Assembly (NCBI GenBank): GCA_023247705.1
Contig: JAHFFY010000007.1
Coordinates: 6,934 to 70,933, forward strand
Direction of reading: 5' to 3'
DNA from: Candidatus Omnitrophota bacterium
Lineage (GTDB): Bacteria; Omnitrophota; Gorgyraeia; Zapsychrales; JAHFFX01
DNA: 64,000 nucleotides
The notes beneath the pieces are model-generated. The model was not told the DNA's origin and did not search any database. It worked only from the letters and a program-made list of their open reading frames with translations. The translations under genes and the position numbers were made by a program. Below, in pieces: positions 3,215-63,135 of this stretch (within the stretch, counting starts at the first letter, position 1; every line of letters begins with the position of its first letter).

Positions 3215-3612
3215 CCTCCATAAATAAAAAACTCCCAATCGATCCTACCTCGATTGGGAGTGCACCCAGTTCTCTTCTTCCCAAAATCTATCCTATTGAT
3301 TACTGTCTCTCGCAGTAAAAATAGTTTTAATTATACTGGCAGTATTCTGACTTCTGGACTCACAATCCCCACTGATGTTTGTGACGTTCAGTGGCAAGCC
3401 TACTCCCTAACCTTCTCATCCCTCAATCCGAATAAACGGGACAATGGTGATACCCTGTTTCAGGGCTTTCTCTATTTGATCGTAATGAACATGATCTTAT
3501 AGAATAGGTTTCGTTTCCAGTTACAGCGGCGGGACCGCTCCGTATTCTCAACGGATTTCCTTTCGGACCAAAATGTTCGATGGATATTTTTGCCAGAACA
3601 TTCGGTACCGAA
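3215..3612 (-). promoter_or_regulatory. putative cobalamin (B12) riboswitch with terminator expression platform
   Basis: minus-strand leader begins GGTACCGAA...; core ...GGAAATCCGTTGAGAATACGGAGCGGTCCCGCCGCTGTAAC (about 3520-3560) matches the consensus GGTGAAANTCC...GCNGNCCCGCCACTGTNA with one substitution; B12-box-like AGTCAGAATACTGCC (3337-3352); GCCACTG...CAGTGG hairpin; ends in the terminator hairpin; target is a TonB-dependent receptor. Confidence 0.55.
3224..3260 (-). terminator. intrinsic terminator / attenuator hairpin immediately upstream of the TonB-receptor RBS
   Basis: minus strand CTCCCAATCGA-ggtagga-TCGATTGGGAG followed by TTTTTTATTT, then RBS GGAGGG and ATG at 3210. Confidence 0.6.
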
Positions 3613-3670
3613 TTCCTTTATTGAATAAAAAACTCAATAAACGGAAGCCAATACAAAGAAATATAGTGTA

Positions 3671-11200: not shown

Positions 11201-14200
11201 CTCTATCTCATCGTTATTCCGCACCATGACCGTGTAGGTGCCGGTTGAATCCGTGCGAAGATATTTATAGCCGTCATACATTTCCCCTGTACTTAAATCG
11301 AGCAAGGCCATATTTCCGGGTTTGAGTTGTATAAATGCCACATCGGCAAATGGATTTATACTCTCAGCGGCAGAGAAGAGATCACTATTAGCGTCATAAG
11401 GGATTTTCTTAACAACATCCCCCTTCTGGAAATCGACAATAACCAGATTATAGTCTATGCCCTGGGTTAGTTGTCGGTACATCAAATACTTGCCGCTTTG
11501 ACTAAAACGGAGTCCATGACTGCGATAAGCCCAGTCGTCACTCAAAGGGGTAATCGCATTGGGAGAAACATTAAGATCGGCTACCTTCGCAAACGAATTC
11601 AACTCATATTTCACCATGGTTTGAAGATCGATCAAGGCCGCGACATTGGCGTCCTTCCTCACGATATAAGCAAACCGCTTATCCGGAGAAATTGCGATAT
11701 CGCCGTCGTTTTTGTCGATAAATAGGGGATTCCAAGATCGCTCTGGATAGGAAATATAAATCTCATCTTGAGTGGTGATTTTATAAAAGCCGTTACTTAA
11801 CAATTCCGCGGACTCAGCATTTTTGAAAACAACTTTACCGGTCCCCGCCTCGATCAATTGATGATTGATTAAAATATATTTCTGCTTGGCGTCCCCAGGG
11901 ACCGCGGTGACGGTGCTCGGTGGGGTGAAAACAAGTCCAGGCGCCGGAGCGATTCCATCCGCTGGGACGCGAACAGGATTTTGCGAATCTTGCGGGTCAA
12001 GATAAATCACATCGCCGGTCGCGGGGTTAAGCAGGACAAAATACTTTCCATCAAAGCTCACAGGTTTATAGCTGCCTTTCTCCAATTGCGATAGCGTTGT
12101 CGGTATATTCGAACTTGAATAATTTGATACATCGCTCAGACTGAGACTTAATCCGAAAGACGTATCCAGCAAATAACGTTTGGAGGAATCCAGAATCCCC
12201 CGCATATCAATATAAAGTTGCGGGAAACTCGTCGTACCCGAATATTCCTGCCGGCTAAACCGCCCTTCCTGATACGAAGCAAATTTTTGCGAAGCTTGAT
12301 CGAAATAAGTAATATCTCCTTTAAATTTATAACTATTTTTCGTCATCGGATCAATCGCAACGGGCTGAGAAAGATCACGGGTGTCAACAACAAGATCGTA
12401 TCGGGGGTGGTGATAGATGTTTTTGGCTACTTGCAAAAGATCCAAATCAGCTAAGTTAACCTCAAAAATGTTTTCAACGGAGACAGGCGAGGTTTGGCCT
12501 AAGTTATTTACGACTCGGACTCCCTTCAATATTCCCTGGGTGTCAACACGCTCATAATAATAATCCGTATTGATCGGTTGGTATTGATAAAGTTGGCCAT
12601 CTTGATCAAAGCGAACCGGGTTGCCTGTTTCCGTCCATATCGTAAAATATTGCTGACCACCAGCATAACTTGTATCAACGATCGAAATTTTTCCACCCAC
12701 CTTGGTGGAATCAATAATTTCAAATCCATGATGAACATAAACTTCCATCTCGCCATTATGCTTGATCATCGCGGTGTAAGTTCCGGTCGAATCGGTGTGC
12801 AGATATTGATAGGCCGTTGTGTTGTTATTAAACAGTTTGGATTCAATGACACTACCGTTTAAAAAATCGCCGGTAAATATGGCCCCATCGGTCAAATCCA
12901 CCAGACTCATCGTTTGATTCTGATGAAAATAAACGAAGGCCACATTGGCGAAGGGATTCATATCATATTCAATATTAACTGAATCCGTGATTCCTTGCGG
13001 TAATTTTCGCACGATCTTGCGCGGATCCGGACTCTCCAGATCCACGATGACAAACGACAACTCATTTGAAGCAGAGATTTCGCGGTACATCAAATATCTT
13101 CCGTCATGGCTAAATCGCAAATCTCGATTTTTGGTGTTCTGAATGTCGGCGGTAAAATTTGGAAGAACGTCCTCCGGGAGAAAACCGGTGATGTCCATAA
13201 AATTATTTTTCAACAAAAATCTGGCGCCGGTCTCGACATTAACGATACTGTCGGTTAAACCGGCGGTTCTTTCCTCGATAAAAGCATATTTCTTATTGGG
13301 CGACGACATAATCTTTCCCTGGGCGTTGGAAGTTGACAACAAAACGACGATGTTGGTGCCTTCCAGATGGACAACTTCCTGTAAAATATTCTGAGAATCC
13401 TCATCGGGGGTTAAGGGTGATTCGGCCTTGGCTTCGGCAGTGTTCTTGATGCTGCGCGTGAGGAGATAACTGTTCCCTCCCAGATGTTCGAACTCTGTGA
13501 CACCGCTTAAAATTTCCGCTGTCGATCCCACCGGTTTCAAAACGCCGTTCACCACCACATGCTTCAGGCTGGCGTTGGTCGGGGCAAAAACAGTTGCCGT
13601 CGGTTGACTTTGCGCGGCCTGAGATTGGCCCGGACGGATCGGATGTTCAGGATCGTCCGGACTCACATAAACGACCTCTTTCGAGGCAGGATTAACAAAA
13701 ACAAAATACTGACCGTCCCAAAAAACATTCGTAAATTCCGTTGAAGAGACACTGGCAAGGATCGTCTCAATAGGAATATCTTTTTCAAAATTATAAAAAA
13801 CGTAATTGGAATTGGAATCCAATACGACAACCAGTCCATTTAACGAACGGGTCGGATCACTTTTACCTTTGGCCACGACCTTCCCTTGTTCAATACGGTC
13901 ACCTGTGTTCAATCTTCTGACGAGATTATTATTCCCATCGATAAATATCAACGATTCACGTCGGAAGAAATGAACAACCTCGTTACCGGACTCAAACGGA
14001 TATTTTATTCCGCTTAAAGCGTCAATCGCCTCCGGATGACTCGGACCAACTAGATTCATAAAATATTCAAGACCGGGCTGTTTAAAGATCAAATTATTCT
14101 GCTCAGGGCTAAAATTCGAAAAATCAAAAGAATTCCAACTCGGGAGCATACCGGGAAGCCCCGGAGAGAATAAAGTAAGTTGATTCCCGTCAAACGTTTC

Positions 14201-17200
14201 TCTGAACTTGTCTTTTAATTTATCCGGATCAACGACACCGGTGACGTCCTGTCCGTCCTGGTCCAAAAAGAGGATTTGTTCCGTTCCCGCTTTATTCACC
14301 CGGACTTCATAATAGGCATCGCCTTCAGACCAAACGGTCGACACCGACTGAATCAAATTGACGTTTAATTGAGAGGCATTGACCATGTTCCCATTGTGAT
14401 GGAAATAAATCACGAATGTACTGGCGATATTTCTAAACGCCGTATAAGTCCCGGAAGAATCGCTGCGAAAAGCCAAGCGCGCTTGATCCGGGATAAACTT
14501 GCCCGCAGCCAGACTAAAAAAATCGATCTCATCATCACCTTTTACTTGAAGAGCAACGATATCGCCAAAATTAGAGAGAGTCAATTCCATTTCTTCTCCT
14601 GGAAGGATAGGATGTTGAATGATAGGCTTTTTCTTTTCTAAATCGATCGCGACAAAGGTCTCCTCATTCGTCTTATTATTTTTTACCACATAGACAAGAT
14701 ACTTACCATCGGCCGTAAATTGGAGGTTGGACATCTTGATCTCCGGAGGAACAACCGGTGCCTGAAACTGCATTTTATACGCCTGAGTTATTACCGCAGG
14801 CACCTCAAAAAAATTTGCTCCTAAGATAAACCGTGAACCATTTTCCAAGTTGAAAATTTCATCAACATCTCCATTGCGTGAGATATAAACGAATTTTTCA
14901 TCCGGTGACATACGCAGCCGCGCTTTGAATTGGTTGGCGTAGTAGACCTCTTCGGGTTTCGATCCTTCTTGCAATCTGATCAATTTATAATAATTGATGT
15001 TTGCGATGTCCTCTATAATTTCGTAATAACCATTCCTCAGAGCCCTTAAGGCCAGAATATTGCCGGCGAACGGGACCTTTTTCCCGGTGGCAATTTCAAA
15101 AATACTCCCCTGGGACAGGATGTGCCGTTGATTGGCATTTTGTGGCACAGCAACAGAACCCATCGCTCTTTTAGATTGAGCGAGCGTCGGCGTACGAACA
15201 ATGGCCGAATTAAATTCATTCACCGCGTCCGAGTCCGGTTGACCGGCGCTTCGTTTAATCTCCTCGATCTCCTCGATCTCCATTTGTTTTGGAACCGCGG
15301 CCGTTTCGTAACCGGTGGTGGTCTCTTCGCCGGTGATGATGTTCAGCAATTCCGTCAGCTTCGCGAATTCTCTCTTTTCGTTGTCATTCAATCCTTCATA
15401 GATTCTCTTGGCGGCCAATTCCTGCAATCTTTTTCCCCACCGCTGGGGAATGGCCGTAAAGCGGTCGGTTTTAATGATCGGGAGCCGATCTTCTTCCGTC
15501 CAGGTATGCCAGTCCGGATGAAACGTTTCAACCCCGCGTAAACTTTCTTGGGTGAACGGAACAACGATCAACGGCAAACGTTTTTGCGCCCCCACGGTGA
15601 CACCTTGAATAATCTCTCCCCCCAGACGTCTTAAACTTGAAACACCTGACCAGTCAAACAAATCCTGATGAAGATAAATGACCTTCTTGCCTTCGGGAAC
15701 AGCCAGCTTCTGAAATTTCCTTTCGTGAGGAAGGATGACTCCGTTATTAGCTTCCACCCGTTCAATGACCGGAGACAAAACTTCCTTGGCCTTCGTTTTG
15801 CTGCTGGCGATCACCCATTCATAATTTGGATTTCCCGTTCCTAATTGCTCCAGCCCAACGATCAAAGTATTGACATAAGCAATTTTTTGGATATCGGTCA
15901 AACTGACGTTGGCAATGATTTTGGTGAAAACATGGTCGATGGCGGATTGAAAAGTTTGCAACGCCCCATCCTTGGAGAAATCGACCTGGATGCGGACATC
16001 CTTGCGTTTCTCGGAGACTTCCATTAACCGGCCGAATTCGACCATCAATCCTCCCTCCACCGTGGAAGAATCAATAATAGACGGCGGAATCTCAACCGCC
16101 AAAATCACCTCTTCGTTTCTGGCAAAAGAAACACGGTGCGGCAAAGACGGGACATGGACCATTTTGACTTTATTGTTCAGTTCTTCGATCTTATCTTCTT
16201 TGGATAACACTTCGGCAAGTTTATCTCCTTCTTTCGGGACAAACATACGGCTGACGGTCTGTTCGTTCATCCCTGTCCCATTATCAATAATGGTCACTGC
16301 ATGAGCACTGAAAGCAATATGAATATCGCCGCGTTCAACAGAAACCGGCAATGGATTTCCGACGATCAATCGTTTATCTTCCACCCCATTGACATGAACA
16401 GGGGCTTCATCTTCAATCTGAGTTGTAATATTCGCAAACCAAACATACGCAAACCGGCGATGAATATCTTCCACCATGGATTCTTGACTATTCTGGAATT
16501 GGGCCTCCCCTTCCGCCTTGGTTCGCAGGATCGGGGTCTTCACTTTAATCTGCACAACCGTCCCCTGGTTCGAGACTGGAGGGAATCCTAAAACCTGTTC
16601 AAACTCTTGCGGGGACTCCAACTGCACGATCTGAATATAGGCTTGCCCATTCGTGTCTTTAAGGATCGTGAGATGATACCAATCCCCTTTTAGGCTGTTA
16701 GCCTGACGGGTCACAATATCAATCCGGTCGCCTCCCGTTGATTCAAGCCAGTCGATAATCTGTTTCACACCCATCCCAAATTGTCCGATCTTAAAATCGC
16801 TTAACCCTAACCGCTCAAGAATGGCATCGAAACTGTTTGAAACAGCCTCGTTGATCCCTTGCGCACGGGGATTAGGATGCTGGCCAACAATGGTGACGTC
16901 TAATCTGGGATCAGTGTAAGTGCTCCGACCATCGGGAAGAGTGTTAATCATATCGATAATCTCTCGCTGGTAATTGCCGCGCACCAAAGCCCTATAGATT
17001 TCCCGATAAGCTTCTTCGGTCGTAAGATTCTGATTAAGATTTAGATTTTTAAGAAGATTCGATAAAATCTGCGGGGCCAGACGGCCTTCTGCCAAACGGG
17101 CCTGCGCGTGCACAAAATGTTCCAGATCGACGCCGCGGAAATTTTGAGAAGGATCAATGTATTCAAATGCGTTGAAACCTTTTCTGATCCGCTCCGAATC

Positions 17201-18925
17201 AGATGCCGATGGCAACCAGGTCGGCTGAGTGATTCCGGCGAACCTTGGGTCAACCGTGGGCACTGGTGGTTTTCTTACTCTCGACCAATTGCGCACATTA
17301 AATCTAGCCAACAATCTTCGGACGCCGATCGATAACTTTCCGGGCAATTCAGATAGCTTACTTGAAAAAAGCATCGCCTTGTCACCATCAACGGACGTCA
17401 ATTGATCTTTCCCCTCGGGATTCTCAGTCAACTTCTGTACGTCCGATCCGCTGATCGACTCAACCGGGACCGGCCTGTCCCAGGTTGTTCCATCCCAGGG
17501 AAGGACATTGCCATCGTCATCATATTCCATAACCGGCTGGACGGTCTCAAGCGACGCTTCGCTCAAAGATTCCCAGGCCGTCTTGATCTCGGGGGAAGAA
17601 TGGTTCAATTCCTGCGCAAGACGATCGAAATCAACCGCGAACGCCTCGCCTAAATTATGCTGTTCGATCCAATGTTTTAGTTGATCCTCTAATAATTCTT
17701 GAGGAGACTCGCTGATCTGAACTTGCGGGTTCGGAGATTGAAAATCCGTTAAAAGATATTCCATGTTCTCCTGGGTCCAGGGGACAAAACCCTCCGGGAG
17801 TGCGGTTCTCCTCGTCAACAGCGTTTGGATGACCGGGCCGTCGAACCCTCCCGAAAAATATTTCCGCGGAATCGTCTCTTTCATCTGGGTATCAAAATCT
17901 TCTTTGATGTAGTTGTAAACTCCCATCTTGAAGGCGTCGATATACTGCTGGTAAATCTTCTCTTTGACTTGCGGATCGTCGGCATTGACGCCGTTGATCT
18001 TCTTTTGATTGGAATAGACTTTATTCAAAAAATTATTCTGTAACGCCTGCTTGTACCAAACAGCCAGGATCATCGAATTGTAAATCTGGCGCAACTGTGC
18101 GAAATTTTTGTTTTCGTTCACCTCGCGCTCGATCTCGGGAATTAAAATATTTTTGGCGATCTGCGATGATAAATTACTGATTTGCTCGACATCCCCCTCG
18201 TTCTGCTGTTGAGTTCCCAATTGTTCGTTGCTCAAATTTTTCTTACGCGAGAGATAATCTTCCTCCAGCATCACGCTTAAATGACTTTCGATGACGAAGG
18301 CTTTCCCCTTATTTTCATAAACAACGGCTTTATCAGGCACAATCCAAACCTTGTTAAACGTATTCAAGGGAATATTTGTCGTCCCATACAACTCATAGGC
18401 TTTTTGATACACCTGATCCCAGAATCTTTTTCCGAGGCCGGTCTCCGGATAAGTCAATGAAGACATCAATTGTTTCAGGATATAATCCTGGGCCAAAAGA
18501 TCTCGCCCCATCTCCGTTTGACCGAAAGCGTCCGGAACGATCCGGTCTTTTTCATACGGAGATAGATTCACCCAAAGATCATCTTCGGGGATCGCCAAGG
18601 TGGCGAGAAAATATTTTATCAATTTTTCGTATTCCGCTTTTAACTCTTTTTTGGGAGAAGTTGTCTGCCCGCGGTCAACGATGAAATCAAATCTCAGAGG
18701 ATTTTCGGGATGAAGAGCCAGACCTCTTAGAATCGGGGGATTAAAAGCGGTCGTTGGAGCGACCATCGTCCCGGGTTTGGGTAGATCAAGATTGGGCTGA
18801 GCGTAAACAACAGCAGAATAATTGAGGATGGGAAAAAGACTTAATCCGACGAAACACAAAAACAAATAAAGCGTGATCCATCGAACCCAGGGACTTCTTC
18901 TATGCTGGACAAAAGAGATAAACAT
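5264..18925 (-). CDS. giant multidomain protein (4553 aa): N-terminal membrane anchor, GHKL-type ATPase signatures, four tandem ~530-aa super-repeats, C-terminal HExxH module
   Basis: uninterrupted 13,662-nt ORF with TAA stop; N-terminal hydrophobic segment WITLYLFLCFVGLSLFPIL; motif ELTQNSKDA...IADDGTGL...GFFGTGGLT at aa ~3817-3888; EAVSNSFDA and IIDNGTGMN at aa ~693-886; repeated modules FSxDGxYLxY...[ST]GTYT and [FW]DGxYFxLxNPxTG; HELAH at aa 4349-4353. Confidence 0.85.
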   Translation of the reverse strand: MFISFVQHRRSPWVRWITLYLFLCFVGLSLFPILNYSAVVYAQPNLDLPKPGTMVAPTTAFNPPILRGLALHPENPLRFDFIVDRGQTTSPKKELKAEYEKLIKYFLATLAIPEDDLWVNLSPYEKDRIVPDAFGQTEMGRDLLAQDYILKQLMSSLTYPETGLGKRFWDQVYQKAYELYGTTNIPLNTFNKVWIVPDKAVVYENKGKAFVIESHLSVMLEEDYLSRKKNLSNEQLGTQQQNEGDVEQISNLSSQIAKNILIPEIEREVNENKNFAQLRQIYNSMILAVWYKQALQNNFLNKVYSNQKKINGVNADDPQVKEKIYQQYIDAFKMGVYNYIKEDFDTQMKETIPRKYFSGGFDGPVIQTLLTRRTALPEGFVPWTQENMEYLLTDFQSPNPQVQISESPQELLEDQLKHWIEQHNLGEAFAVDFDRLAQELNHSSPEIKTAWESLSEASLETVQPVMEYDDDGNVLPWDGTTWDRPVPVESISGSDVQKLTENPEGKDQLTSVDGDKAMLFSSKLSELPGKLSIGVRRLLARFNVRNWSRVRKPPVPTVDPRFAGITQPTWLPSASDSERIRKGFNAFEYIDPSQNFRGVDLEHFVHAQARLAEGRLAPQILSNLLKNLNLNQNLTTEEAYREIYRALVRGNYQREIIDMINTLPDGRSTYTDPRLDVTIVGQHPNPRAQGINEAVSNSFDAILERLGLSDFKIGQFGMGVKQIIDWLESTGGDRIDIVTRQANSLKGDWYHLTILKDTNGQAYIQIVQLESPQEFEQVLGFPPVSNQGTVVQIKVKTPILRTKAEGEAQFQNSQESMVEDIHRRFAYVWFANITTQIEDEAPVHVNGVEDKRLIVGNPLPVSVERGDIHIAFSAHAVTIIDNGTGMNEQTVSRMFVPKEGDKLAEVLSKEDKIEELNNKVKMVHVPSLPHRVSFARNEEVILAVEIPPSIIDSSTVEGGLMVEFGRLMEVSEKRKDVRIQVDFSKDGALQTFQSAIDHVFTKIIANVSLTDIQKIAYVNTLIVGLEQLGTGNPNYEWVIASSKTKAKEVLSPVIERVEANNGVILPHERKFQKLAVPEGKKVIYLHQDLFDWSGVSSLRRLGGEIIQGVTVGAQKRLPLIVVPFTQESLRGVETFHPDWHTWTEEDRLPIIKTDRFTAIPQRWGKRLQELAAKRIYEGLNDNEKREFAKLTELLNIITGEETTTGYETAAVPKQMEIEEIEEIKRSAGQPDSDAVNEFNSAIVRTPTLAQSKRAMGSVAVPQNANQRHILSQGSIFEIATGKKVPFAGNILALRALRNGYYEIIEDIANINYYKLIRLQEGSKPEEVYYANQFKARLRMSPDEKFVYISRNGDVDEIFNLENGSRFILGANFFEVPAVITQAYKMQFQAPVVPPEIKMSNLQFTADGKYLVYVVKNNKTNEETFVAIDLEKKKPIIQHPILPGEEMELTLSNFGDIVALQVKGDDEIDFFSLAAGKFIPDQARLAFRSDSSGTYTAFRNIASTFVIYFHHNGNMVNASQLNVNLIQSVSTVWSEGDAYYEVRVNKAGTEQILFLDQDGQDVTGVVDPDKLKDKFRETFDGNQLTLFSPGLPGMLPSWNSFDFSNFSPEQNNLIFKQPGLEYFMNLVGPSHPEAIDALSGIKYPFESGNEVVHFFRRESLIFIDGNNNLVRRLNTGDRIEQGKVVAKGKSDPTRSLNGLVVVLDSNSNYVFYNFEKDIPIETILASVSSTEFTNVFWDGQYFVFVNPASKEVVYVSPDDPEHPIRPGQSQAAQSQPTATVFAPTNASLKHVVVNGVLKPVGSTAEILSGVTEFEHLGGNSYLLTRSIKNTAEAKAESPLTPDEDSQNILQEVVHLEGTNIVVLLSTSNAQGKIMSSPNKKYAFIEERTAGLTDSIVNVETGARFLLKNNFMDITGFLPEDVLPNFTADIQNTKNRDLRFSHDGRYLMYREISASNELSFVIVDLESPDPRKIVRKLPQGITDSVNIEYDMNPFANVAFVYFHQNQTMSLVDLTDGAIFTGDFLNGSVIESKLFNNNTTAYQYLHTDSTGTYTAMIKHNGEMEVYVHHGFEIIDSTKVGGKISIVDTSYAGGQQYFTIWTETGNPVRFDQDGQLYQYQPINTDYYYERVDTQGILKGVRVVNNLGQTSPVSVENIFEVNLADLDLLQVAKNIYHHPRYDLVVDTRDLSQPVAIDPMTKNSYKFKGDITYFDQASQKFASYQEGRFSRQEYSGTTSFPQLYIDMRGILDSSKRYLLDTSFGLSLSLSDVSNYSSSNIPTTLSQLEKGSYKPVSFDGKYFVLLNPATGDVIYLDPQDSQNPVRVPADGIAPAPGLVFTPPSTVTAVPGDAKQKYILINHQLIEAGTGKVVFKNAESAELLSNGFYKITTQDEIYISYPERSWNPLFIDKNDGDIAISPDKRFAYIVRKDANVAALIDLQTMVKYELNSFAKVADLNVSPNAITPLSDDWAYRSHGLRFSQSGKYLMYRQLTQGIDYNLVIVDFQKGDVVKKIPYDANSDLFSAAESINPFADVAFIQLKPGNMALLDLSTGEMYDGYKYLRTDSTGTYTVMVRNNDEIEIFFHKSKEVKKRADYGVRIAEISTIYKGDEVYFRLTSDSGDLYELDQDGNLTPWQKSLTGIHLEYYTAFGITLGGINGQVGADPNQQIFPPLFLDFVNASPLQHLNQRGIYFDRTLGLIIDHRYPNNSNAIDPVNGYAFTVSVSDEIAGYNANPGLIVFRTPKGEVVQQGWFNGHPTVATIIQGAIDAVPATYRVIHDTSVGTYNFQSLAQLNDIKMIPGVSPDIYTQILFDGTYFLLINPQTGDLYYVNPSAPENPIFVKAGSGATQIFPTMQLTLDDVKPNDAPYRWTIEWDDQGIPALKDNQGNLTARHPDIVNYVRLNSDTFLAYDQNGQVIEIIRMADPVLARYDLKSLNQTLLTYNDHLAVLTDGVHQFVVDLLTLKRINAIDSDANRYPNLKAGEPNSQEIHLSPSGRFTVHRTETGQLVYYDHDDPHPTPKIILTDLINKEYTVLDNADVVVIKTNAGYSLLNLFTKDYVGWGDTKHVEVDSSGTILVGKVETPSSGNLVPSLYVVNLKDNQQANIFVNLNEVRISSDQKYIYVMVASGLIHSFDRKTGKALPSLPVAPEDLPRYWENYDTQQKTIWDRTSQGVPATWPAGMRDSLKYDDETPFNKGRDSIRLSGTDVMVFNRFDSGNGRSLMSGAGIYDLKTGNDFMGSTLLESIPEHSAVSSLKGGNVRYFNSKEGISKVKVGNQAFDFDPHLTFVNQSKTYLLGQQIFTIQGTGGGPIKGFWMLIDSAEKQYPLLGGIPAGFAVVDVNGDYFVLHNADTGETKYFDPKTIVNAKVTQGIPAQQDAGTRVKWNQEVVTRREAWVKRVQSIYQPILELINSGYGEYNARGEINRRLAPLFDELYRAQLREVRARFERAVREGKDFDATASLPFDRFAGRMARLKIFLDGFLNNTTIRDFIRKEEYSYQRDFYVNLFSGLFELAVHWDLSFETVMEKLVKDSELGEEVLYRYLFELLGYGFKVGSQEQLSLIPKFGELIDRLNQITNKQMKLVDLKKILDFLFFVADKGPQNIETMNKQLDKILRARPQTMERFLAKWLTSFASVELADLTDFINHPDSTRALGDARSFASFLTSDGDQVREESSEEKAMFLPEGEDVDLERGGTSLARIAEEEERRPKDDQYGNIVKKSFSKIGVEDVDGLWQDLVARGYIDETQSKVIKKLEKESDVVLQYRFMPYQSAVYRVLQEARKIVMDVDYFIEHRHQLPGAPQNAQMDLVRDSKVQRESGAYTAELTQNSKDARASKLEISYYLRTNQETGKREFVEEIADDGTGLLQEFAMWVARKSTKEFGAQQGTTGFFGTGGLTTFEGVDRLELINNNGIRRYMFVVDVIKDENGNFIDFKLVRMRKITNPNIREGVTVRRVKAEENTIPELDQMLSQRTWKIFTGLAQTDDFKIYFVNYTDNVRRLRQLNVDSKVVSEIDFTIPRFGDAQMTTFGQFRLIATKDMPLQVVDRVGLRVSEIPEPYLKLVPPGLRRHIKELGLNLQIPLPMIRGRSDFEHGDTYYLPYVQKYVAIELFKLIAQKTLSETDPQFTFLNFPTEWRSNDHYWKSIDFNDAPVVRLAQRINDGQYNEITPQELLNLISSQPGLDYEKKVLKLILMLKAPVQGKTTSLLLERIAIQEELDRNRQGRDLARRNIEMLEDIGLRVNRADIPDVRTIAGYQEILRQASGIETGHEQMKNPAAYLVNPDEYTNLEKELIASALQPGKLVGIERVLLTDNRVFFEGAFSTYENRKTMFLRRGLASHIGRSDPRLSILDEATNTIDHELAHLLEQYMVDFFVSSDLWTTGLPVHLSNFTHDRVGTFAESMKYMAAIWLTNSSDWEEEAYQGADRALLKSSDDLNERFLTNLEMQLPLANVAGRMPVHAISQAAKSIGLDHRPDQRGSIMDMAGQNKRSPPGGIDLNPAHFNLQVQGQGTDGAAVPNEQNLEIIPINGLTPVILQITPVTDLPFLLGLSQPAREQLSYSAR

Positions 18926-23674: not shown

Positions 23675-24952
23675 ATGAAAGGGCCAATGGAAACCAGGAA
23701 ACCAAACGACCCGTTCGCCGCGCTCAAAATACGGGACATCTGCTATTTTATTGCCTCCATCGCCTCGGCCGGGCTGGCCAACCGCGCGATGGTGGTGGTC
23801 ATCGGCTACCAGATTTATCAAATCACCAAAAGCCCTCTCGCCTTAGGATGGATGGGACTGGTTGAAGCGATTCCGGCGATTTCTTTGTCTCTGTTCGGCG
23901 GTTACGTGGCCGACCATCATGACCGCAGATCAATCCTGCTCATCACCAAAGTTGTTTCGGCGCTGTGCGCGGTCTTTCTGAGCTTTTTATCACTGCATTT
24001 AACTTCGGCGAATATTGTTTGGATTTACGTGACGATCTTCGCGGCCGGACTGGCCAGAGGGTTTTCCGATCCGGCCCATACCGCTTTCGAAGCCCAAGTC
24101 GTTCCCAAAAAATTGACCGTCAATGCCGCGTCCTGGATCGGCAGCACCTGGATCACCTCTTCCATCATCGGACCGGCGCTGGTCGGATTTAGTTATGATC
24201 TTCTTGGAGTGCCGAAAACATATTTGATCCTCGCGTTATTTTTTCTTTTATCGTGGATCAGCATCTTCCGGATTGCTAAAAAACCTTTTGTGAAACCGGC
24301 GCCAAAAGAGCCCCTCTTTAAAAGCATCGAGATTGGATTACGTTTTGTCTTCAAAGAACAGGCCTTGATCGGTTCGATGAGCCTGGATTTGTTCGCCGTC
24401 TTCTTTGGAGGCGCGATCGCGCTGCTTCCTATTTTTGCGACGGATATTCTTCACGTGGGGCCGCGTGGGTTCGGATTATTAAACGCGGCCCCTTCGCTGG
24501 GCGCACTCCTGATCATGCTATGGTCGACTCGCCATCCGCCCATCCGCAATGCCGGAGCGAATCTTTTGTTCTGCGTTACCGGATTTGGAATAAGCATGAT
24601 CGTTTTTGCATCTTCCAAAAATTTTATTTTATCTCTACTGGCCTTAATCTTCAGCGGGATATTCGATGGGATCAGCATGGTGATCCGCCGCTCCATCGTC
24701 CGGCTTCTTTCTCCGGAACATCTTCGCGGCCGGGTGGCATCGGTGAGCTGGATCTTTATCGGGGCTTCGAATGAATTGGGCGCGTTTGAAAGCGGAATCG
24801 CCGCCCATTGGCTGGGAACAATACCGGCGGTGTGGCTCGGAGGAATGGTGACATTGTTCGTTGTTTCAATAACCTATATCTTTGCGCCCAAATTACGCTC
24901 TTTACATTTAGATCCGCAAGAAATTGGTCCCAATAAAAATAATCTTTATTGA
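23675..24952 (+). CDS. MFS transporter (putative efflux pump, TetR-controlled)
   Basis: 425 aa, about 12 TM segments, MFS motif GGYVADHHDRRSIL; TGA stop. Confidence 0.85.
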   Translation: MKGPMETRKPNDPFAALKIRDICYFIASIASAGLANRAMVVVIGYQIYQITKSPLALGWMGLVEAIPAISLSLFGGYVADHHDRRSILLITKVVSALCAVFLSFLSLHLTSANIVWIYVTIFAAGLARGFSDPAHTAFEAQVVPKKLTVNAASWIGSTWITSSIIGPALVGFSYDLLGVPKTYLILALFFLLSWISIFRIAKKPFVKPAPKEPLFKSIEIGLRFVFKEQALIGSMSLDLFAVFFGGAIALLPIFATDILHVGPRGFGLLNAAPSLGALLIMLWSTRHPPIRNAGANLLFCVTGFGISMIVFASSKNFILSLLALIFSGIFDGISMVIRRSIVRLLSPEHLRGRVASVSWIFIGASNELGAFESGIAAHWLGTIPAVWLGGMVTLFVVSITYIFAPKLRSLHLDPQEIGPNKNNLY

Positions 24953-25047
24953 GCTTCTTTCTATTAAATTAAACGACACTCTAAATCTCTCGCCAGCGTT
25001 GATGTCGGAAGCGAGAGATTTAGAGTTGGGAAGGAAAAGCTCAATAA
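24946..25047. repeat. ~100-bp nested palindromic intergenic repeat (copy A) between convergent genes
   Basis: TTATTGAGCTT...CTCTAAATCTCTCGCC...GCGAGAGATTTAGAG...AAGCTCAATAA; near-identical to copy C at 53830-53926. Confidence 0.7.
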
Positions 25048-34764: not shown

Positions 34765-36582
34765 TTAAGGAAAACCTGATCCCTTCGGAATCTTGCAGGC
34801 ATCGCTCCAATTATAATCTGTTTCCAGGAGAAAAACAGTCTGGATAAACGCCAGATGCGAATAACCTTGGGGAAAATTCCCCGTCAACCGCTGTGTTGCC
34901 ATCTCAATATGCTCAGAGAATAATCCCAACGGATTGGCGCATTGAAGAATATTCTCAAACATGCCCCTGGCTTTTTCTTCTTCCCCGATCAAATACAGGG
35001 CATTGATCATCCAGAACGTGCAAACGATAAACGCATTCTCCGGAAAACCTAAACTATCATGGGCTATATAACGCATCGCAAAATTATTGCGAACCAAATC
35101 TTCATATATTCGCAGCACCGTGCTAATGATACGAGGATCCTTCTTATCCAGAAATCCGTAGTGGAGCATCAATAAATTAGCGGCATCCATCTCCTGGGAT
35201 CCATAATACATCGTGAAGGCTTGCTTTTTCTCATTCCACCCGTAAGTTAGAATATCCTGTTTGATCTCATGAGCCATCTTCAAACAATTCTGAGCGTACT
35301 TGGTTTTACCGACGTATTGCGCGATTTTAGCGGCCCTGTCCATGGCCACCCAGTTCATCATCTTGGAATGGACATAATGCTGGACAGCCCCTCGCTGTTC
35401 CCAAATCCCGCTGTCCGCATCGCGCCAGACCATCATCACCTTGTTCACTAAAGAACGCACAACCGCCCAAACCTCTTCATCAAATGAAATGGAAGGCCGC
35501 CGGTTTAAAATAAAATTTGTATAAATCGTCTCAATCAGTTCCCCGTAGAGATCGTTCTGTTTTTGGCGGTACGCATCATTTCCAATCCGTACCGGACGGG
35601 AATGTTCATATCCATTTAAATGATCCAAGATCTTTTCCGTTAATTCTTTCTCTCCATTAATCCCGTACATCACAGCGATATTTTCATGTTTAAGCAGCAT
35701 ACGATTTAAAATAAAATTCAGATAGCGTTCGGCCAATCGTTCATGCCCTAAACGGGAATAAAGATCAATAATCATGGAGGCATCCCGCACCCAACAGTAA
35801 CGGTAATCCCAATTCCGATCCTTGCCGATAATCTCCGGCAGGGATGTCGTCGGCGCAGCGATAACCGCACCCGTTCTCTGATAGGCCAATAATTTTAAGG
35901 TAATCGTGGAACGGATGACCATTTCCTGATAAGACTCAGGAAGTTTAGTCCGATAAACCCAGTCCAACCAATAACTTTTAGTTTTCTCGTACTCGACATA
36001 GATCTTATAAAGATTAATGGGCTCTAACTTCTCATGATAGGAAAGCAAAAAAAATGAAGACTCGCTGAGTTCGATGGGCTCCCCTTTAACTATTTTCTGG
36101 TGATCGAGATTGCTGTAAAGATAGAAACTATTATATTCACCTTTTTGTGAGGTGATTTTAATATAATCTTTTTCGAAATGGAACTGGGCGTTGCTTAACG
36201 CGTAATTAGGCCGGGGAATCAATTCGATGATGATTTGGGGCCGTCCTGAAATGACATGAATATCCCGATGGATTTCCGAAGGACAATGCGTTTCTCCCTG
36301 TGTTGTAAGAAAACGGGGCATATAATCATTGACCTCAAAGACGCCATGCCTGGTCTCGAAAATTGTTTTTATAATGGCGGTGTGAAAAATATAATGCTGT
36401 CTGATCGCAATGACATCGACACTGGAAATCTTAAAATAACCGCCCTTCTCATCGTCTAAAATGCGGGCGAACAAAGAAGGAGAATCAAAAAATGGCAGGC
36501 ATAACCAATCGATGCTGCAATCGGAAGAGATCAACGCAGAGCTTGTACAGTTCCCGATGATTCCGTAATGGTAGTTTTTCAT
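34765..36582 (-). CDS. glycoside hydrolase family 15 (glucoamylase/trehalase-like)
   Basis: 605 aa with an (alpha/alpha)6-barrel GH15-like C-terminus; start overlaps the otsB stop (ATGA). Confidence 0.75.
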   Translation of the reverse strand: MKNYHYGIIGNCTSSALISSDCSIDWLCLPFFDSPSLFARILDDEKGGYFKISSVDVIAIRQHYIFHTAIIKTIFETRHGVFEVNDYMPRFLTTQGETHCPSEIHRDIHVISGRPQIIIELIPRPNYALSNAQFHFEKDYIKITSQKGEYNSFYLYSNLDHQKIVKGEPIELSESSFFLLSYHEKLEPINLYKIYVEYEKTKSYWLDWVYRTKLPESYQEMVIRSTITLKLLAYQRTGAVIAAPTTSLPEIIGKDRNWDYRYCWVRDASMIIDLYSRLGHERLAERYLNFILNRMLLKHENIAVMYGINGEKELTEKILDHLNGYEHSRPVRIGNDAYRQKQNDLYGELIETIYTNFILNRRPSISFDEEVWAVVRSLVNKVMMVWRDADSGIWEQRGAVQHYVHSKMMNWVAMDRAAKIAQYVGKTKYAQNCLKMAHEIKQDILTYGWNEKKQAFTMYYGSQEMDAANLLMLHYGFLDKKDPRIISTVLRIYEDLVRNNFAMRYIAHDSLGFPENAFIVCTFWMINALYLIGEEEKARGMFENILQCANPLGLFSEHIEMATQRLTGNFPQGYSHLAFIQTVFLLETDYNWSDACKIPKGSGFP

Positions 36583-37388
36583 TCCCAGGACTCAACAGTT
36601 TTTAATTCTAGAATTTCTTCTAACAGCAGACTTACTTCTTTGATATCCTTTAAGAAATATTTAGCCTGAGATACTTCGGAATGCCCGACACAGATGGTAA
36701 TGCCTTCATCCTTTAACGCCTGAAACGCATCTTCATCCGTTTGATCATCACCGATATAAACAGGCAAAGTCGCTTTATTATCCAGAGTGAATCTCTGTCC
36801 ATTCAAAAACCACTTAACGATGGATCCTTTATCCCACTTAACCGGTGGGCTAATCTCAAAAACTTTCTTGCCGGTTTGAATACTGATTTCTTTCTTAACT
36901 AAATAAGGTTTGCAGATATGGTGAAAAATCGTATTGAATAGACCCAGATTATTTTCCGGCACCATACGATAATGAACACCGATCGACCATCCTTTGTCTT
37001 CAATGATTACGCCATGAATTTTAGTTAACTCTCTATCCAAGTCGTTTTTTATCCCTTGGAACAATCGTGTAATTCTGTCTTTATCCGGATTTTCAAAATG
37101 TATCTGGGGACTATCAATTTCAAACCCGTGATTACCGATATAAACTATATCGGCGATTCCGACTCTTTTTTTTATATCTGCGACCGCCCTGCCGCTGACA
37201 ATAATCAGTCGGCAAAACGGAAGACCTGACATTTCTTGCAGCAGCACTTTATTCTCTGCGGAAAGGAATGATTGATCAGGGATCTCCACAATCGGCGTCA
37301 ATGTTCCATCATAATCTAGAAATAAAAAAAGATATTTATCCCGCCAGGATTCTTTCAATGCGTTCCAATGATCAATAAAATAGTCCAT
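36579..37388 (-). CDS. otsB: trehalose-6-phosphate phosphatase (HAD-IIB)
   Basis: motif FLFLDYDGTLTPIV; probable start at the internal Met MDYFIDHW (37388), 10 nt after the otsA stop; the ORF track extends to 37469. Confidence 0.8.
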   Translation of the reverse strand: MDYFIDHWNALKESWRDKYLFLFLDYDGTLTPIVEIPDQSFLSAENKVLLQEMSGLPFCRLIIVSGRAVADIKKRVGIADIVYIGNHGFEIDSPQIHFENPDKDRITRLFQGIKNDLDRELTKIHGVIIEDKGWSIGVHYRMVPENNLGLFNTIFHHICKPYLVKKEISIQTGKKVFEISPPVKWDKGSIVKWFLNGQRFTLDNKATLPVYIGDDQTDEDAFQALKDEGITICVGHSEVSQAKYFLKDIKEVSLLLEEILELKTVESWE

Positions 37389-37398
37389 ACCTATGCCC

Positions 37399-38877
37399 CT
37401 AATCCCGAAACTCGAATTCCAATAATTCAGATATGATTTTGCCAGCCCAATGATAAATATTATTTTCATGTATGATTTTACGCATTTTGATCATTCGTTT
37501 ATTCCGATCATCTTCGGTTAAATTAAGCGCCTGAAAAATTCCTTCGCTGAATTCATCGCAATCATAAGGATTGATTAAGACCGCGTCCGTCAGTTCCCGC
37601 GCCGCGCCGGTAAACTGACTTAGAATAAGCATTCCCTTATGGTCTGACCGGCTGGAGATATATTCCTTGGCGACCAAATTCATCCCGTCATGGAGCGAAC
37701 TTACGATCGCCGCCGTGCTGATACGGTAAAGCGCTAATAATTCTATCAAAGAAAACTGCCGACGGACAAAAACAACCGGTTTCCAATGAGAGACCGCATA
37801 CTTCCAATTAATCTCCTCAACCAAAGCGTTGATCTCATCATTCAGTTCTTTATATTTTTTGATATGCAACCGAGTGATCACTCCTATTTGCAGGAATACA
37901 ACCTTGCCGTATAACTCTGAATGTTTTGCGAAAAGACGATCGATCGCGCGCAACTTATCCGGCAATCCCTTCGTATAATCAATTCGGTCCAATCCTACCA
38001 AAACTTGACGCTCTGAAAGTTCAAATTCCTGAATCAACGCATCCGCTTTCTCTTGGACCGCTACCGAATTGACTACTTCATTAATCCCGGTGAAATCCAC
38101 ACTAATCGGATAAGGTCGAATCAAAGTTTCGTGATCATTTTTAATGATCGAAACGCGCTCACGATCGATTTTACTCTCGATCTCCCGATCAATGGTTTCC
38201 AAAAAATTATTACAATGTTGCCGAATGTGAAAACCTAACAGATCATTGCTCAAAAGCCCCTCTAAAATTTCTTTTTTTTGCGGGCAAATTCTAAAGGCCT
38301 CGTGGCACGGCCAAGGGATATGCCAGAAATGAGCGGTAATGATTTGTCGGGGGGCTTTTTGTTTTAGATATTTCGGGAGGAGACAAAAATGATAATCCTG
38401 GATCCACACGAATGCCTTTCGATCTCCGATTTCATCGATGATCGCTTGGGCAAATTTTTCGTTCACGCGTTTATAACATTCCCAATCCTCCGACCTGAAA
38501 ATTGGTCTTTCGAAGGCCATATGGCATAACGGCCACAGCACTTCATTTGCATATCCATAATAATATCCTTGTTCCTCTTCTTTCGTCAGCCAAACGCGTT
38601 TGAGCGTGTAAGACGGTTGATCCGGAGGAACACGCACTTTTCCTTTTGAATCCGTAACATCGCGATCGGCATCGCCATGACCATAGGCGACCCATAAACC
38701 ATCGCAGCTTTGCATCACCGGGTCTAAGGCGCTGGTCACACCACCGATGCCCCGGATCCATTCGATGTTCCCTTTTTTCCGGACGTGCACATACGGCTCG
38801 CGGTTGGAAACAACGATAAAAAGATAGTCCTTCATTTTATCTTTAATCAAATTTTGTAAATTTTCTTTTTGCCACAT
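37399..38877 (-). CDS. otsA: alpha,alpha-trehalose-phosphate synthase (GT20)
   Basis: 492 aa; GT20 motifs VWIQDYHFCLLP and TAHFWHIPWP; TAG stop. Confidence 0.85.
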   Translation of the reverse strand: MWQKENLQNLIKDKMKDYLFIVVSNREPYVHVRKKGNIEWIRGIGGVTSALDPVMQSCDGLWVAYGHGDADRDVTDSKGKVRVPPDQPSYTLKRVWLTKEEEQGYYYGYANEVLWPLCHMAFERPIFRSEDWECYKRVNEKFAQAIIDEIGDRKAFVWIQDYHFCLLPKYLKQKAPRQIITAHFWHIPWPCHEAFRICPQKKEILEGLLSNDLLGFHIRQHCNNFLETIDREIESKIDRERVSIIKNDHETLIRPYPISVDFTGINEVVNSVAVQEKADALIQEFELSERQVLVGLDRIDYTKGLPDKLRAIDRLFAKHSELYGKVVFLQIGVITRLHIKKYKELNDEINALVEEINWKYAVSHWKPVVFVRRQFSLIELLALYRISTAAIVSSLHDGMNLVAKEYISSRSDHKGMLILSQFTGAARELTDAVLINPYDCDEFSEGIFQALNLTEDDRNKRMIKMRKIIHENNIYHWAGKIISELLEFEFRD

Positions 38878-39530
38878 AGGAATGGTTGGGTTGACTAAAC
38901 AACAGCCGATTAATAATGATTAAATTAACAAGAGAAGAATTAAAGAAAGATTAAAAAAGAATTAAAACTTATCGAATTTCTTCTTTAGGACGTCTTATTT
39001 CCTTTTGGCGGTATCAATCGTTTCGGAGAATTAAATAATGAACTCAATGGAAAGTATCTCAAAGGAACAAATCGATCTTGAACTCATTTTAAATTATACT
39101 CCTCATCCTGATTTTTCTGCAATTTTAATTATTCCTTAATCTCTCTTTAATGTGAAAATTTCTATACTATGTTCAAACTCTTTAAAAGAAAGGAACGAAA
39201 TATGACCACGACCGAGGCTGCGATCACCTTGTTGCATCTTTCAGATAAAGATTTAAAAAGAATAGGATTGCCGCAGTTAAAAAATTTTCTGGGAATGCTA
39301 AGATGCGTGACCCGTCAGCTTGAGCGCGAGATAATCCATCGAGAAATTCAAAGACAGGAACATGAATCAATTCTTAAATAACAAAGTGTCTTTGCGAAAA
39401 ACGATCTGAACCCAATTTGTCTTTCCGGTGTTGGAGCTGGGGTAACACTCATTCTAAAAGCAAAAATCCTCTCTCCTTCCATTCCTACCATACCAGCTCC
39501 ACGCCCTCCCCCTGAATCAAAAGAGCCGTC

Positions 39531-39627
39531 TTATTGAGCTTTTCTTTACCAATATTAAATCTCCCCACTCCGTCAAGAACAGTCGGGGGAGATTTAACAT
39601 TCCTTTTGCTAGAGAGAAGCTCAATAA
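39531..39627. repeat. ~100-bp nested palindromic intergenic repeat (copy B, second subfamily)
   Basis: TTATTGAGCTT..TTAAATCTCCCCAC...GGGGGAGATTTAA..AAGCTCAATAA. Confidence 0.7.
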
Positions 39628-41330: not shown

Positions 41331-41478
41331 CTCAATTCTCCTAAACCCGAACTCTGGGCGCTCCAACAGAACAGTACTGATTCATGAAACGGGAAAGGAA
41401 AAGATCAATAACTTGGAGGTTATTTTAGTTTTAAGAATATTAATAGAAGATTAAAATAAAATTAGGGTAGAAAAAAAA

Positions 41479-53829: not shown

Positions 53830-53926
53830 TTATTGAGCTTCTTTCTACTAAACGAAACTCTAAATCTCTCACCAACGTCGGTATCGCCAGCGAGAGATTT
53901 AGAGTTGGAAAGGAAAAGCTCAATAA
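53830..53926. repeat. ~100-bp nested palindromic intergenic repeat (copy C)
   Basis: near-identical to copy A; lies upstream of the ABC-F gene; ORF 53817..54053 overlapping it is likely spurious. Confidence 0.7.
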
Positions 53927-61758: not shown

Positions 61759-61855
61759 TTATTGACCTTTTCCTTCCCAATGTTAAATCTCCAACTTTCG
61801 TCAGCGATGGAGGTTGGAGATTTAACATTCTTATTAGTAGAGAGAAGGTCAATAA
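61759..61855. repeat. ~100-bp nested palindromic intergenic repeat (copy D, second subfamily; outer stem GACCTT/AAGGTC)
   Basis: TTATTGACCTT..TTAAATCTCCAAC..GTTGGAGATTTAA..AAGGTCAATAA; abuts the stop of the TPR gene. Confidence 0.7.
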
Positions 61856-63135
61856 TCTCTAAGAAAACCAAACGCTCCCAGCCAGCTGGAGGCGATAAAT
61901 AAAATGAGAGATAATCCCGAAGCCGTTTCCAAGAGGGCCGACATTTCTTTTCCGTAAAAAAAGGACTCAGCCCCCCTGATCATTCCAACGCTTAAAATAA
62001 ATATTCCTATGGCACCGTAAACGATACGGCCGGCTTTATGATCATTGGTAAATGTACTCGAGAATGGGATCGTAGCCATGATCAGGGCAATCCCGATCGT
62101 GGTCATCACCAGGGCTTTGAACGCAATGCCGATCAATATAAAACTGATTCCGGCAAAAAATCCTCCGCCCGTGAAGATCCCATCCAGCTTTTCTGTTTTC
62201 TTCAAACTATACCGAGCAAACGGATCGCAGAGGATCAGCAAATTTCCGATCCCCCGGGAAAGCCATGTCCAGAAAAAGAAACCGTATAAAGCGATCAACC
62301 CTAAATACCCGACCACCGCCCAAGGCCCATTTAAAATGGCTAAAAATCCCTTGAGCGCCGAACGATACGCGATGTAAATTCCCATCAAAATCCAAATCCG
62401 TGCGCCTTTGGTCTGACGAGACATGAATAGTCCATACTCCAAATACAACCGATATAACGGTGATTTCGCTTTAAAGACTTCCAGCATCCCCGATCTGGCC
62501 GGCTCGAAATTGGGATCCAAGCGCAACGCTTCTTTAAAATGGATCTGGGCCTTTCGATAATCTCTCCGGTTTAAATAGACCCATCCGGCGTTGGAATGGG
62601 ACAGACTATTTTCGGGATCTTTGGCCAGAAGGTCAGAGGCCAAATGAACACTTTCATCGAGTTTGTTTTGCATCCGCAAAGCGTTGGCCAAAACGTTTCC
62701 GGCAAAGCGATTATCCGCGTCGAAGGAAAGAGCATCCCGCGCGGATTTTTCAGCATCGTTCCATTTTTCCAGCATAGAAAAAATATAGGCCTTGGCCGCG
62801 TGGGCATCGGGATATTGGGGATTAAGCCTCAACGCCTCATCGACCGTATCCAAAGCTAGTTTATGTTTCTTCAAACCGGAAAGGATCAAAGACTTCAATT
62901 GATAATAGGCCGGTTCCTGATTTTCATGTTTGAGAGCTTCATCGATCGTTTGCAAGGATTGTTTGCGTTGGTCGTCCAAATGATATTGCGCGACCGCAAG
63001 GAAATACAATAAATAATCGTTGGTCGGGGCCTGGGATAATTGGTCTTTAAAAGCCTGGACCGCTTCTTTATAACGGCCCTGGTCGATCAGGATCGTCCCT
63101 CTGCGAAAAGCCGTTTCCTGAAATGGTTCACTCAC
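61849..63135 (-). CDS. TPR-repeat protein with C-terminal multi-TM region
   Basis: 428 aa; tandem TPR-like repeats in the N-terminal half and about 4 TM helices in the C-terminal third; start overlaps the AAA gene stop by 4 nt. Confidence 0.65.
   Translation of the reverse strand: MSEPFQETAFRRGTILIDQGRYKEAVQAFKDQLSQAPTNDYLLYFLAVAQYHLDDQRKQSLQTIDEALKHENQEPAYYQLKSLILSGLKKHKLALDTVDEALRLNPQYPDAHAAKAYIFSMLEKWNDAEKSARDALSFDADNRFAGNVLANALRMQNKLDESVHLASDLLAKDPENSLSHSNAGWVYLNRRDYRKAQIHFKEALRLDPNFEPARSGMLEVFKAKSPLYRLYLEYGLFMSRQTKGARIWILMGIYIAYRSALKGFLAILNGPWAVVGYLGLIALYGFFFWTWLSRGIGNLLILCDPFARYSLKKTEKLDGIFTGGGFFAGISFILIGIAFKALVMTTIGIALIMATIPFSSTFTNDHKAGRIVYGAIGIFILSVGMIRGAESFFYGKEMSALLETASGLSLILFIASSWLGAFGFLRDY

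Follow-up and report, generated by a model that had tools for sequence, protein, structure and literature searches.

Why should two copies of a palindromic element in one bacterial genome differ by changes that are matched, base for base, on the opposite arm of the hairpin? The question is raised by a 64,000-nucleotide (nt) stretch of DNA from an uncultured bacterium labelled Candidatus Omnitrophota (contig JAHFFY010000007.1, positions 6,934 to 70,933; hereafter the window), which carries four copies, A to D, of such an element. The initial annotation of the window had noted that copies B and D keep the same architecture and stems, that a CC-to-AA change in the inner stem is matched by GG-to-TT on the opposing arm (two adjacent pairs, C-G to A-T), and that in the outer arms of D a G-to-C change is matched by C-to-G, with A, B, and C retaining the G-C state. 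All of this can be read directly in the DNA. From it, the annotation had concluded that the hairpin is under selection as an RNA or a protein-binding structure. The analysis presented here favors another answer: B and D are probably inserted copies of a trans-mobilized, non-autonomous foldback element of the miniature inverted-repeat transposable element (MITE) type, and their compensatory differences are best viewed as inherited lineage markers of a selfish element whose hairpin is constrained.

Copy B (39531–39627, minus strand) is a full 97-nt element scoring 99.7 bits (E 5e-20) with a covariance model of the family. Its outer stem pairs TTATTGAGCTT (39531–39541) with AAGCTCAATAA (39617–39627), the leading TTA of the former and the final TAA of the latter being the two halves of a TTAA target, and its inner stem pairs TTAAATCTCCCC (39555–39566) with GGGGAGATTTAA (39586–39597). 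Copy D (61759–61855, minus strand; 105.4 bits), also a full 97-nt element, has outer arms TTATTGACCTT (61759–61769) and AAGGTCAATAA (61845–61855), which give the outer pair GACC/GGTC, and inner arms TTAAATCTCCAAC (61783–61795) and GTTGGAGATTTAA (61813–61825). The two agree at 74 of 97 positions, and a single G.T wobble occurs in B where D has G-C. The outer pair is GAGC/GCTC in both copy A (24946–25047, plus strand), which reaches 102 nt through 5 additional nt in the left internal loop and scores 90 bits, and copy C (53830–53926, plus strand; 97 nt, 102.9 bits). The asymmetric interior sets the orientation of B; on the minus strand it reads 5' TTATTGAGCTTCTCTCTAGCAAAAGGAATG ... TTGGTAAAGAAAAGCTCAATAA 3'. 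By the same criterion B and D point the opposite way from A and C, with minus-strand scores of about 100 bits versus 52–57 bits for the plus strand. Together the four window copies score 90–105 bits (E about 1e-18 to 1e-21) and lie 12–15 kb apart in mixed orientation. The proposal that B and D form one subfamily holds for the interior, which in B is D-like, but not for the outer pair, which in B is G-C as in A and C; the outer pair of B is thus a further independent flip relative to D.

Further copies were collected from public genome and metagenome contigs with a pattern that described the right arm only and gave the covarying positions as N, so that the left arm and the variable right-arm bases are free of ascertainment. 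Seven matches to this pattern occur in the window, against 0.03 expected. Genome contigs yielded 4 copies and metagenome contigs 33; a scan of viral contigs returned 3 chance matches and no element. A covariance model built from 35 distinct copies then added 8 copies that the pattern had missed in the same loci, bringing the total to approximately 45 full copies in about 311 kb of related contigs, nearly all of them exactly 97 nt long from TTATTGA to TCAATAA. The full-length copies in genome contigs come from three metagenome-assembled genomes labelled uncultured Planctomycetales and one labelled Candidatus Omnitrophota, and some element-bearing contigs encode a GatB protein that is closest to Omnitrophota GatB. 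The family is therefore dispersed and multi-copy in related uncultured genomes, and its hosts are probably Omnitrophota; for the window, this evidence of its lineage is indirect, resting on the element that it shares with those contigs.

Covariation across such a copy set was the check that the initial annotation had proposed for its claim, and explicit pair counting together with RNAalifold on the 35 copies bears the claim out at the level of the family. The copies share a two-helix hairpin of 28 pairs in which 109 cells carry compensated changes, compared with 16 mismatches and 6 wobbles. Standard pairs fill 98.0% of the 980 stem cells versus 88.0±0.6 in column shuffles (none of 500 shuffles reached as high), and the 109 both-side changes compare with 38.9±5.9 in shuffles and with 1–19 when the partner is slid by 1–3 columns. 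Double changes occur at 9 pairs. At the outer pair, 19 copies have C-G, 15 have G-C, and 1 has A-T; this pair is broken in none of the 35 and is kept in 5 of the 6 full-length copies that only the model found; four inner-stem pairs each occur as two or three pair types. Since the covarying positions take two or three pair types, the sequence is evidently not read there and only the pairing is kept. Since, moreover, compensated changes far exceed uncompensated ones, the hairpin is constrained and the family is not decaying neutrally. The 12 alternative Watson-Crick states are common to many copies, only 2 being singletons, and 10 of the 13 mismatch states are singletons. It is thus the lineages of copies that reveal the pairing constraint; single copies decay. 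Accordingly, the annotation's preference for selection over neutral decay stands for the family, but not for the individual inserted copies, which gather private mismatches.

Other parts of the element are conserved in a different manner. The 11-bp termini, TTATTGAsCTT and AAGsTCAATAA, are perfect inverted repeats in all 35 aligned copies except at the covarying position, and the invariant boxes come as inverted pairs, TTATTGA-CTT at the ends and AAATCTC/GAGATTT inside. Both subfamilies keep an asymmetric internal loop, with about 10 extra nt in the left arm, as well as about 20 unpaired nt in the apical loop. Structural variants were also seen. A 40-nt copy at L018 3683–3722 is internally deleted, with only the ends left; a form of 133 nt, whose apical loop contains an additional hairpin of 36 nt, occurs at L016 1053–1185 and L033 224–356; and at L018 two copies (5454–5550, plus strand, and 5611–5707, minus strand) form an inverted pair 60 nt apart in which one right end is degraded (GCTTAATAA). 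Right-arm-only remnants (..GGAAAGGAAAAGnTCAATAA), none with a left arm nearby, are found in the window at 41390–41411 (plus strand; CGGGAAAGGAAAAGATCAATAA), between a histidine kinase gene and a response regulator gene, and at L001 3185–3206 and L017 3400–3429. The window and L001 remnants both lie just upstream of an opposite-strand gene.

That the element moves is seen at L039, where a 97-nt copy splits a second, 76-nt MITE at the latter's central TTAA (nested pair, L039 4133–4301). The 76-nt element is intact at L022 (1144–1219) and L045 (2251–2326), and alignment of L039 with L022 leaves a clean gap of 93 nt. Like the 97-nt element, this second palindromic family has the termini TTATTGAATTTC...GAAATTCAATAA and is open in four frames; its net gain is 72 nt (24 codons), and the window contains no copy of it. 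A further comparison of filled and empty sites is provided by the GatB gene at L042, whose product carries a 32-residue insert between ..SSRLF and KETKKIANWI that is present neither in the 478-residue Omnitrophota homologues nor in PDB 3h0l_B; removal of 96 nt from the 100-nt copy restores CTA TTT AAG GAA, a reading that can be aligned gap-free with LY-G-E of the homologues. Insertion thus takes place at TTAA and adds 93 nt net, equal to 31 codons. The 97-nt span includes the target and can be read equally well in two ways: as a 91-nt element that duplicates TA, T[TA]-TTGA...TCAA-[TA]A, or as a 93-nt element inserted between TT and AA without duplication. Near-identical copies with only 1–2 differences lie in different flanks (L019_7641 and L018_11294; L040 and L045_694), and a contig end falls inside copy D; both observations point to recent spread. 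The element thus combines a length below the 200–300 bp usual for MITEs, the lack of an encoded transposase (its longest translations are 31–32 residues), terminal inverted repeats, dispersed copies, and a filled/empty comparison with a defined target.

The same insertions reveal how the element behaves within genes. Frames +1, +3, −1, and −3 are stop-free in about 33 of the 35 copies, and the third frame meets a TGA immediately; summed over the 35 copies, frames +1, +2, and +3 contain 9, 163, and 2 stops, respectively, and 30 of 35 copies, as opposed to 9 of 2030 shuffles, have both frames open. The net gain of every length variant is divisible by three (97 nt giving 93, 100 giving 96, 133 giving 129, 91 giving 87, 76 giving 72, and 40 giving 36). 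When TTAA is split as nTT|AAn or TTA|Ann, translation reads through and the protein gains 31 residues; when it is split as nnT|TAA, the stop codon is converted to TAT-TGA and termination is restored within the element. Given this target, the 93-nt net gain, the stop-free frames, and the rebuilt stop, all three insertion frames are harmless, and copies are tolerated inside genes. In related contigs, Pfam assignments place in-frame copies within GatB (L042), pyruvate:ferredoxin oxidoreductase (PFOR; L043), a UvrD-type helicase (L023), and SCO1 (L029), and another lies in a GNAT acetyltransferase; the PFOR has 39 residues where PDB 6cin_A has 3. At exactly the place of the GatB insertion, a loop that separates the catalytic domain from the tail domain, other Omnitrophota GatB proteins (P0002, P0009, and P0029) carry unrelated inserts of 16–38 residues, and that of P0009 (..SFPNALVGNPDE..TKTFGGDNFE..) resembles another translated palindromic repeat.

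The window copies themselves are intergenic or at stop codons. Copy A lies between a convergent MFS gene and an open reading frame (ORF) of 539 codons, and the MFS gene (23675–24952) takes its TGA stop (24950–24952, plus strand) from the end of the element (..CTT TAT TGA, formerly CTT TAA). Similarly, the 5' end of copy D overlaps the end of a TPR gene (61849–63135), whose TGA stop (61849–61851, minus strand) derives from the element (..GAT TAT TGA, formerly GAT TAA). Copy B is intergenic, 155 nt downstream of a DUF3568 gene and 653 nt upstream of a GT20 trehalose-phosphate synthase gene, and copy C is antisense to its neighbors, 19 nt upstream of the start of an ABC-F gene (53810, minus strand).

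How, then, would a mobile element come to carry matched changes? The invariant boxes are candidate protein contacts: a transposase acting in trans may recognize TTATTGAsCTT at the ends and perhaps AAATCTC/GAGATTT in the interior. By analogy with RUP and IS630-Spn1, discussed below, this enzyme would most likely be of the TA-duplicating IS630/Tc1-mariner type, a hairpin-recognizing single-strand transposase being the alternative. Only source copies with complementary arms, able to fold or endowed with matching ends, would keep transposing. If propagation is limited to such sources, a change in one arm survives in the family only when it is matched in the other, and an inserted copy, freed from the constraint, would decay. 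The hairpin constraint would then most likely act on source copies, for mobility, and the differences between B and D would reflect descent from different source copies rather than co-evolution of the two loci.

Several observations weigh against this account. The independent same-strain contigs in ENA and Logan all carry the four window copies, so that the search revealed no empty site; Pfam scans of 30 window ORFs turned up no transposase; and a terminus-pair scan over 0.3–4 kb was too noisy in this A+T-rich DNA to reveal an autonomous element with matching termini. The link between hairpin and mobility is also indirect, in that protein binding to two ends would by itself need no match between the arms at freely varying positions, and preservation of the asymmetric loop and of the length in all but one copy suggests a further constraint. 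Finally, the orientation of copies is strongly biased: it follows the direction of the enclosing ORF in 18 cases against 1, and agrees with co-directional intergenic flanks in 11 against 3 and with the single flank, where only one is known, in 4 against 3. Stop-free frames alone do not predict such a bias, as the reverse frames are equally stop-free and no selection is apparent at the level of residues.

Hydrophobicity of the peptide or strand-specific insertion could be the cause of this bias. Gene direction is nearly uniform in these loci, so the contributions of replication and transcription are inseparable. The two inverted copies at L018 were considered as evidence that orientation tracks transcription and were set aside, since with a stricter gene call all genes there run in one direction and convergent contexts are uninformative by symmetry. 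It is tempting, if rather speculative, to suppose that the element and the 76-nt family have both been shaped to be harmless to translation at their own target, through TTAA, a multiple-of-three length, stop-free frames, and rebuilt stops. This would amount to an adaptation of selfish DNA to gene-dense, streamlined genomes, and it may couple to a hairpin-recognizing, single-strand mode of transposition that sets the orientation bias.

Among the other explanations of the matched arms, the one that survives best attributes complementarity to mutation: template switching or mismatch correction in the folded hairpin would copy one arm onto the other. A copy at L046 8360–8450 has exactly the expected appearance, being palindromic throughout its 91 nt: the complement of the right arm has taken the place of the entire left arm, the normally asymmetric loop included. 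Differences between assemblies also draw attention to the hairpins. Compared with an independent assembly of the same strain (ENA ERZ27280021 k141_2546553; about 10.8 kb), the window has mismatches at 61795, 61804, 61826, 61847, 61859, and 53897, and all six fall inside copies D and C or 4 nt from them, so that hairpins appear to be unusual sites of sequence change or of sequencing error. G>T or C>A changes account for three of the five at D, and the clustering could reflect hypermutability, polymorphism, or sequencing error at inverted repeats. None of the six is compensated, however, and the private mismatches of individual copies likewise stay uncorrected. Arm copying would, furthermore, erase both the asymmetry of the internal loop and the unpaired state of the apical loop, features kept in all copies other than that at L046. 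We consider arm copying unlikely as the general cause of the pairing and yet a serious partial alternative.

Less probable still is that the hairpin serves the host as a structured RNA produced by read-through transcription, e.g. as a 3'-end stabilizer, an RNase III site, or a translational regulator, with pairing selected locus by locus. The fold is very stable for both strands as RNA (in the window copies, z-scores range from −7 to −10 for either strand, whether folded as RNA or as DNA). Many intergenic copies are found within 3–66 nt of an upstream stop codon and run in the direction of that gene, the copy at L032 1360–1456 places a GGAAAGGAAAAG tract right before an ATG, and for Correia elements processing of the RNA hairpin is known (PMC2229807). 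These features must be set against in-frame copies in essential enzymes (GatB, PFOR, and a UvrD-type helicase), antisense copies (C and L019_11128), mismatches private to single copies, as anticipated in the absence of selection at each locus, and a distance to the next start codon that ranges from 0 to 653 nt. G.U pairs are not favored over A.C (6 versus 9 cells), and so give no hint of purifying selection at the RNA level on either strand. With G.U not favored, both orientations in use, and copies in coding regions, neither a functional RNA nor an operator is likely. Searches specific to copy B lead in the same direction. No Rfam 15 family matches at its gathering score, with only sub-threshold chance matches at B, and a promoter and terminator scan made no call in B or next to it; the apical loop of about 20 nt and the purine-rich 3' flank differ from an intrinsic terminator, in which a G+C-rich stem with a short loop precedes a T run; and the −35-like TTGACC of the element ends is, by eye, accompanied by no usable −10 box at 16–18 nt. 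The initial reading of the paired changes as a mark of structural function is therefore retained only in part: the pairing is indeed kept, but in an element that is itself mobile.

A protein-binding DNA palindrome, be it an operator, a site for a nucleoid protein, or a recombination site resembling integron attC, would explain why two invariant boxes occur as inverted pairs, why the length is constant at 97 nt, and how half-sites might change together to suit a dimer. It would not explain why the covarying positions take two or three base pairs, why copies occur in coding regions and at gene ends with no neighboring gene in common, or why one copy sits inside another repeat, as mobile DNA does. 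Integron attC sites belong to a cassette array beside intI and are bounded by the boxes RYYYAAC...GTTRRRY. The window shows no cassette array and no integrase, its copies are widely spaced, and their ends depart by eye from this consensus; an attC site was consequently rejected, and a binding palindrome of any type is very improbable. Least credible of all is a genuine protein module common to paralogous proteins with an incidental DNA palindrome. Annotated proteins from many families do contain the +3-frame peptide, I[ED]L..KQN.KSP....GRF.[VI]GKEK[VL]N. Many copies, however, lie between genes or antisense to them, their edges are sharply defined in the DNA, at TTAA, and their flanks are unrelated. 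Variation in the unpaired loop shows no codon periodicity (codon positions 1, 2, and 3 give 1.37, 1.45, and 1.38 bits), the base pairs covary, and homologous enzymes and solved structures lack the segment. The covariation and the intergenic copies together refute the module as the primary explanation. A search of a protein database with a concatenated profile of the peptides of all four frames gave only 9 matches, since 31 residues are too short to reach significance among 5.8 billion sequences; all 9 carry the +3-frame peptide, in keeping with the orientation bias.

The preferred reading of the element as a foldback MITE also accords with what has been described in other bacteria. Bacterial MITEs are shorter than 200 bp, have terminal inverted repeats with TA at the termini, are A+T-rich, form a long stem-loop, and sometimes generate ORF fusions within genes (PMC2229807). 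The element shows every one of these listed properties and in addition behaves in coding regions like the Rickettsia palindromic elements (PMC10969869), and on these grounds it is read as a MITE. The Rickettsia palindromic elements (RPEs; Ogata et al. 2000, as outlined in PMC10969869 and PMC2229807) are palindromes of about 100–150 bp that lie between genes or are fused to them in frame. The resemblance extends to a long stem-loop, to occurrence both between genes and in frame within genes for conserved proteins, to tolerance of the added peptide, and to the lack of a known transposase. The likeness is one of behavior, of 'working like' an RPE, and not of membership by sequence (nor would a sequence relationship be expected), as the present host is uncultured and its contigs are labelled Omnitrophota or Planctomycetales rather than Rickettsiales. 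The element here is also shorter and of fixed length (97 nt, net 93) and has a defined TTAA target and TA-type ends, whereas target duplication is unknown for RPEs and TA ends are found in some of them only (PMC2229807).

For mobilization in trans, the best mechanistic model by analogy would be RUP of Streptococcus pneumoniae, a 107-bp MITE thought to be mobilized by IS630-Spn1 (PMC2229807). Both elements are about 100 bp in size, have inverted repeats at their ends and a TA dinucleotide within the target, fold into a stem-loop, and occur in many dispersed copies. RUP, however, is intergenic with no listed ORF, and its insertions inactivate insertion sequence transposase genes (PMC2229807); it also has a candidate transposase with matching inverted repeats, of which no counterpart was found here, and the target here is the extended TTAA. 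The 107-bp species of the Correia (NEMIS) elements of Neisseria likewise has a TA duplication (one of the two readings for the present element), terminal inverted repeats, and a long hairpin in transcripts, and it carries ORFs and often forms in-gene fusions (PMC2229807). Correia elements differ in being Neisseria-specific, in having inverted repeats of 24–26 bp and unrelated sequence, and in the IHF site and promoter activity of some Correia species. The REP/BIME palindromes associated with RAYT transposases (PMC3733652) resemble the element in their high copy number, in a hairpin that is thought to be recognized as such and not by sequence alone, and in known biases of orientation. They are 20–40 bp long, extragenic, tagged with GTAG or CGTC, and linked to RAYT, in contrast to 97 nt, TTAA/TA ends, and intragenic copies here, and the element thus falls outside that class. 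A literature search on Omnitrophota or Omnitrophica together with palindromic or MITE elements returned nothing relevant, and the family appears to be undescribed.

Several other features of the window deserve mention. A cobalamin riboswitch (Rfam RF00174, 44.6 bits; 3321–3627, minus strand) lies directly upstream of a gene for a TonB-dependent receptor (1168–3210, minus strand), and a single ORF of 4553 codons (5264–18925, minus strand) would encode a giant protein. Near copy B, a trehalose operon comprises the genes for the GT20 synthase (37399–38877), a trehalose phosphatase (36579–37469), and a GH15 enzyme (34765–36582). The interval of about 650 nt between this operon and copy B (38878–39530) contains no ORF of at least 100 codons and has no Rfam match; it may be a long leader or harbor an unannotated small gene.

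These findings extend the Rickettsia paradigm of selfish DNA in protein genes to a very different, uncultured lineage, and they supply it with a specific insertion target, TTAA, together with a simple rule that accounts for the tolerance of insertions. They bear on annotation as well, because the copies lengthen conserved enzymes by 31 residues, take the place of stop codons, and interrupt assemblies, and they carry a warning for the discovery of noncoding RNAs, since textbook covariation can stem from a mobile foldback element instead of a functional RNA. Finally, the copies may be useful as markers for telling strains of these organisms apart.

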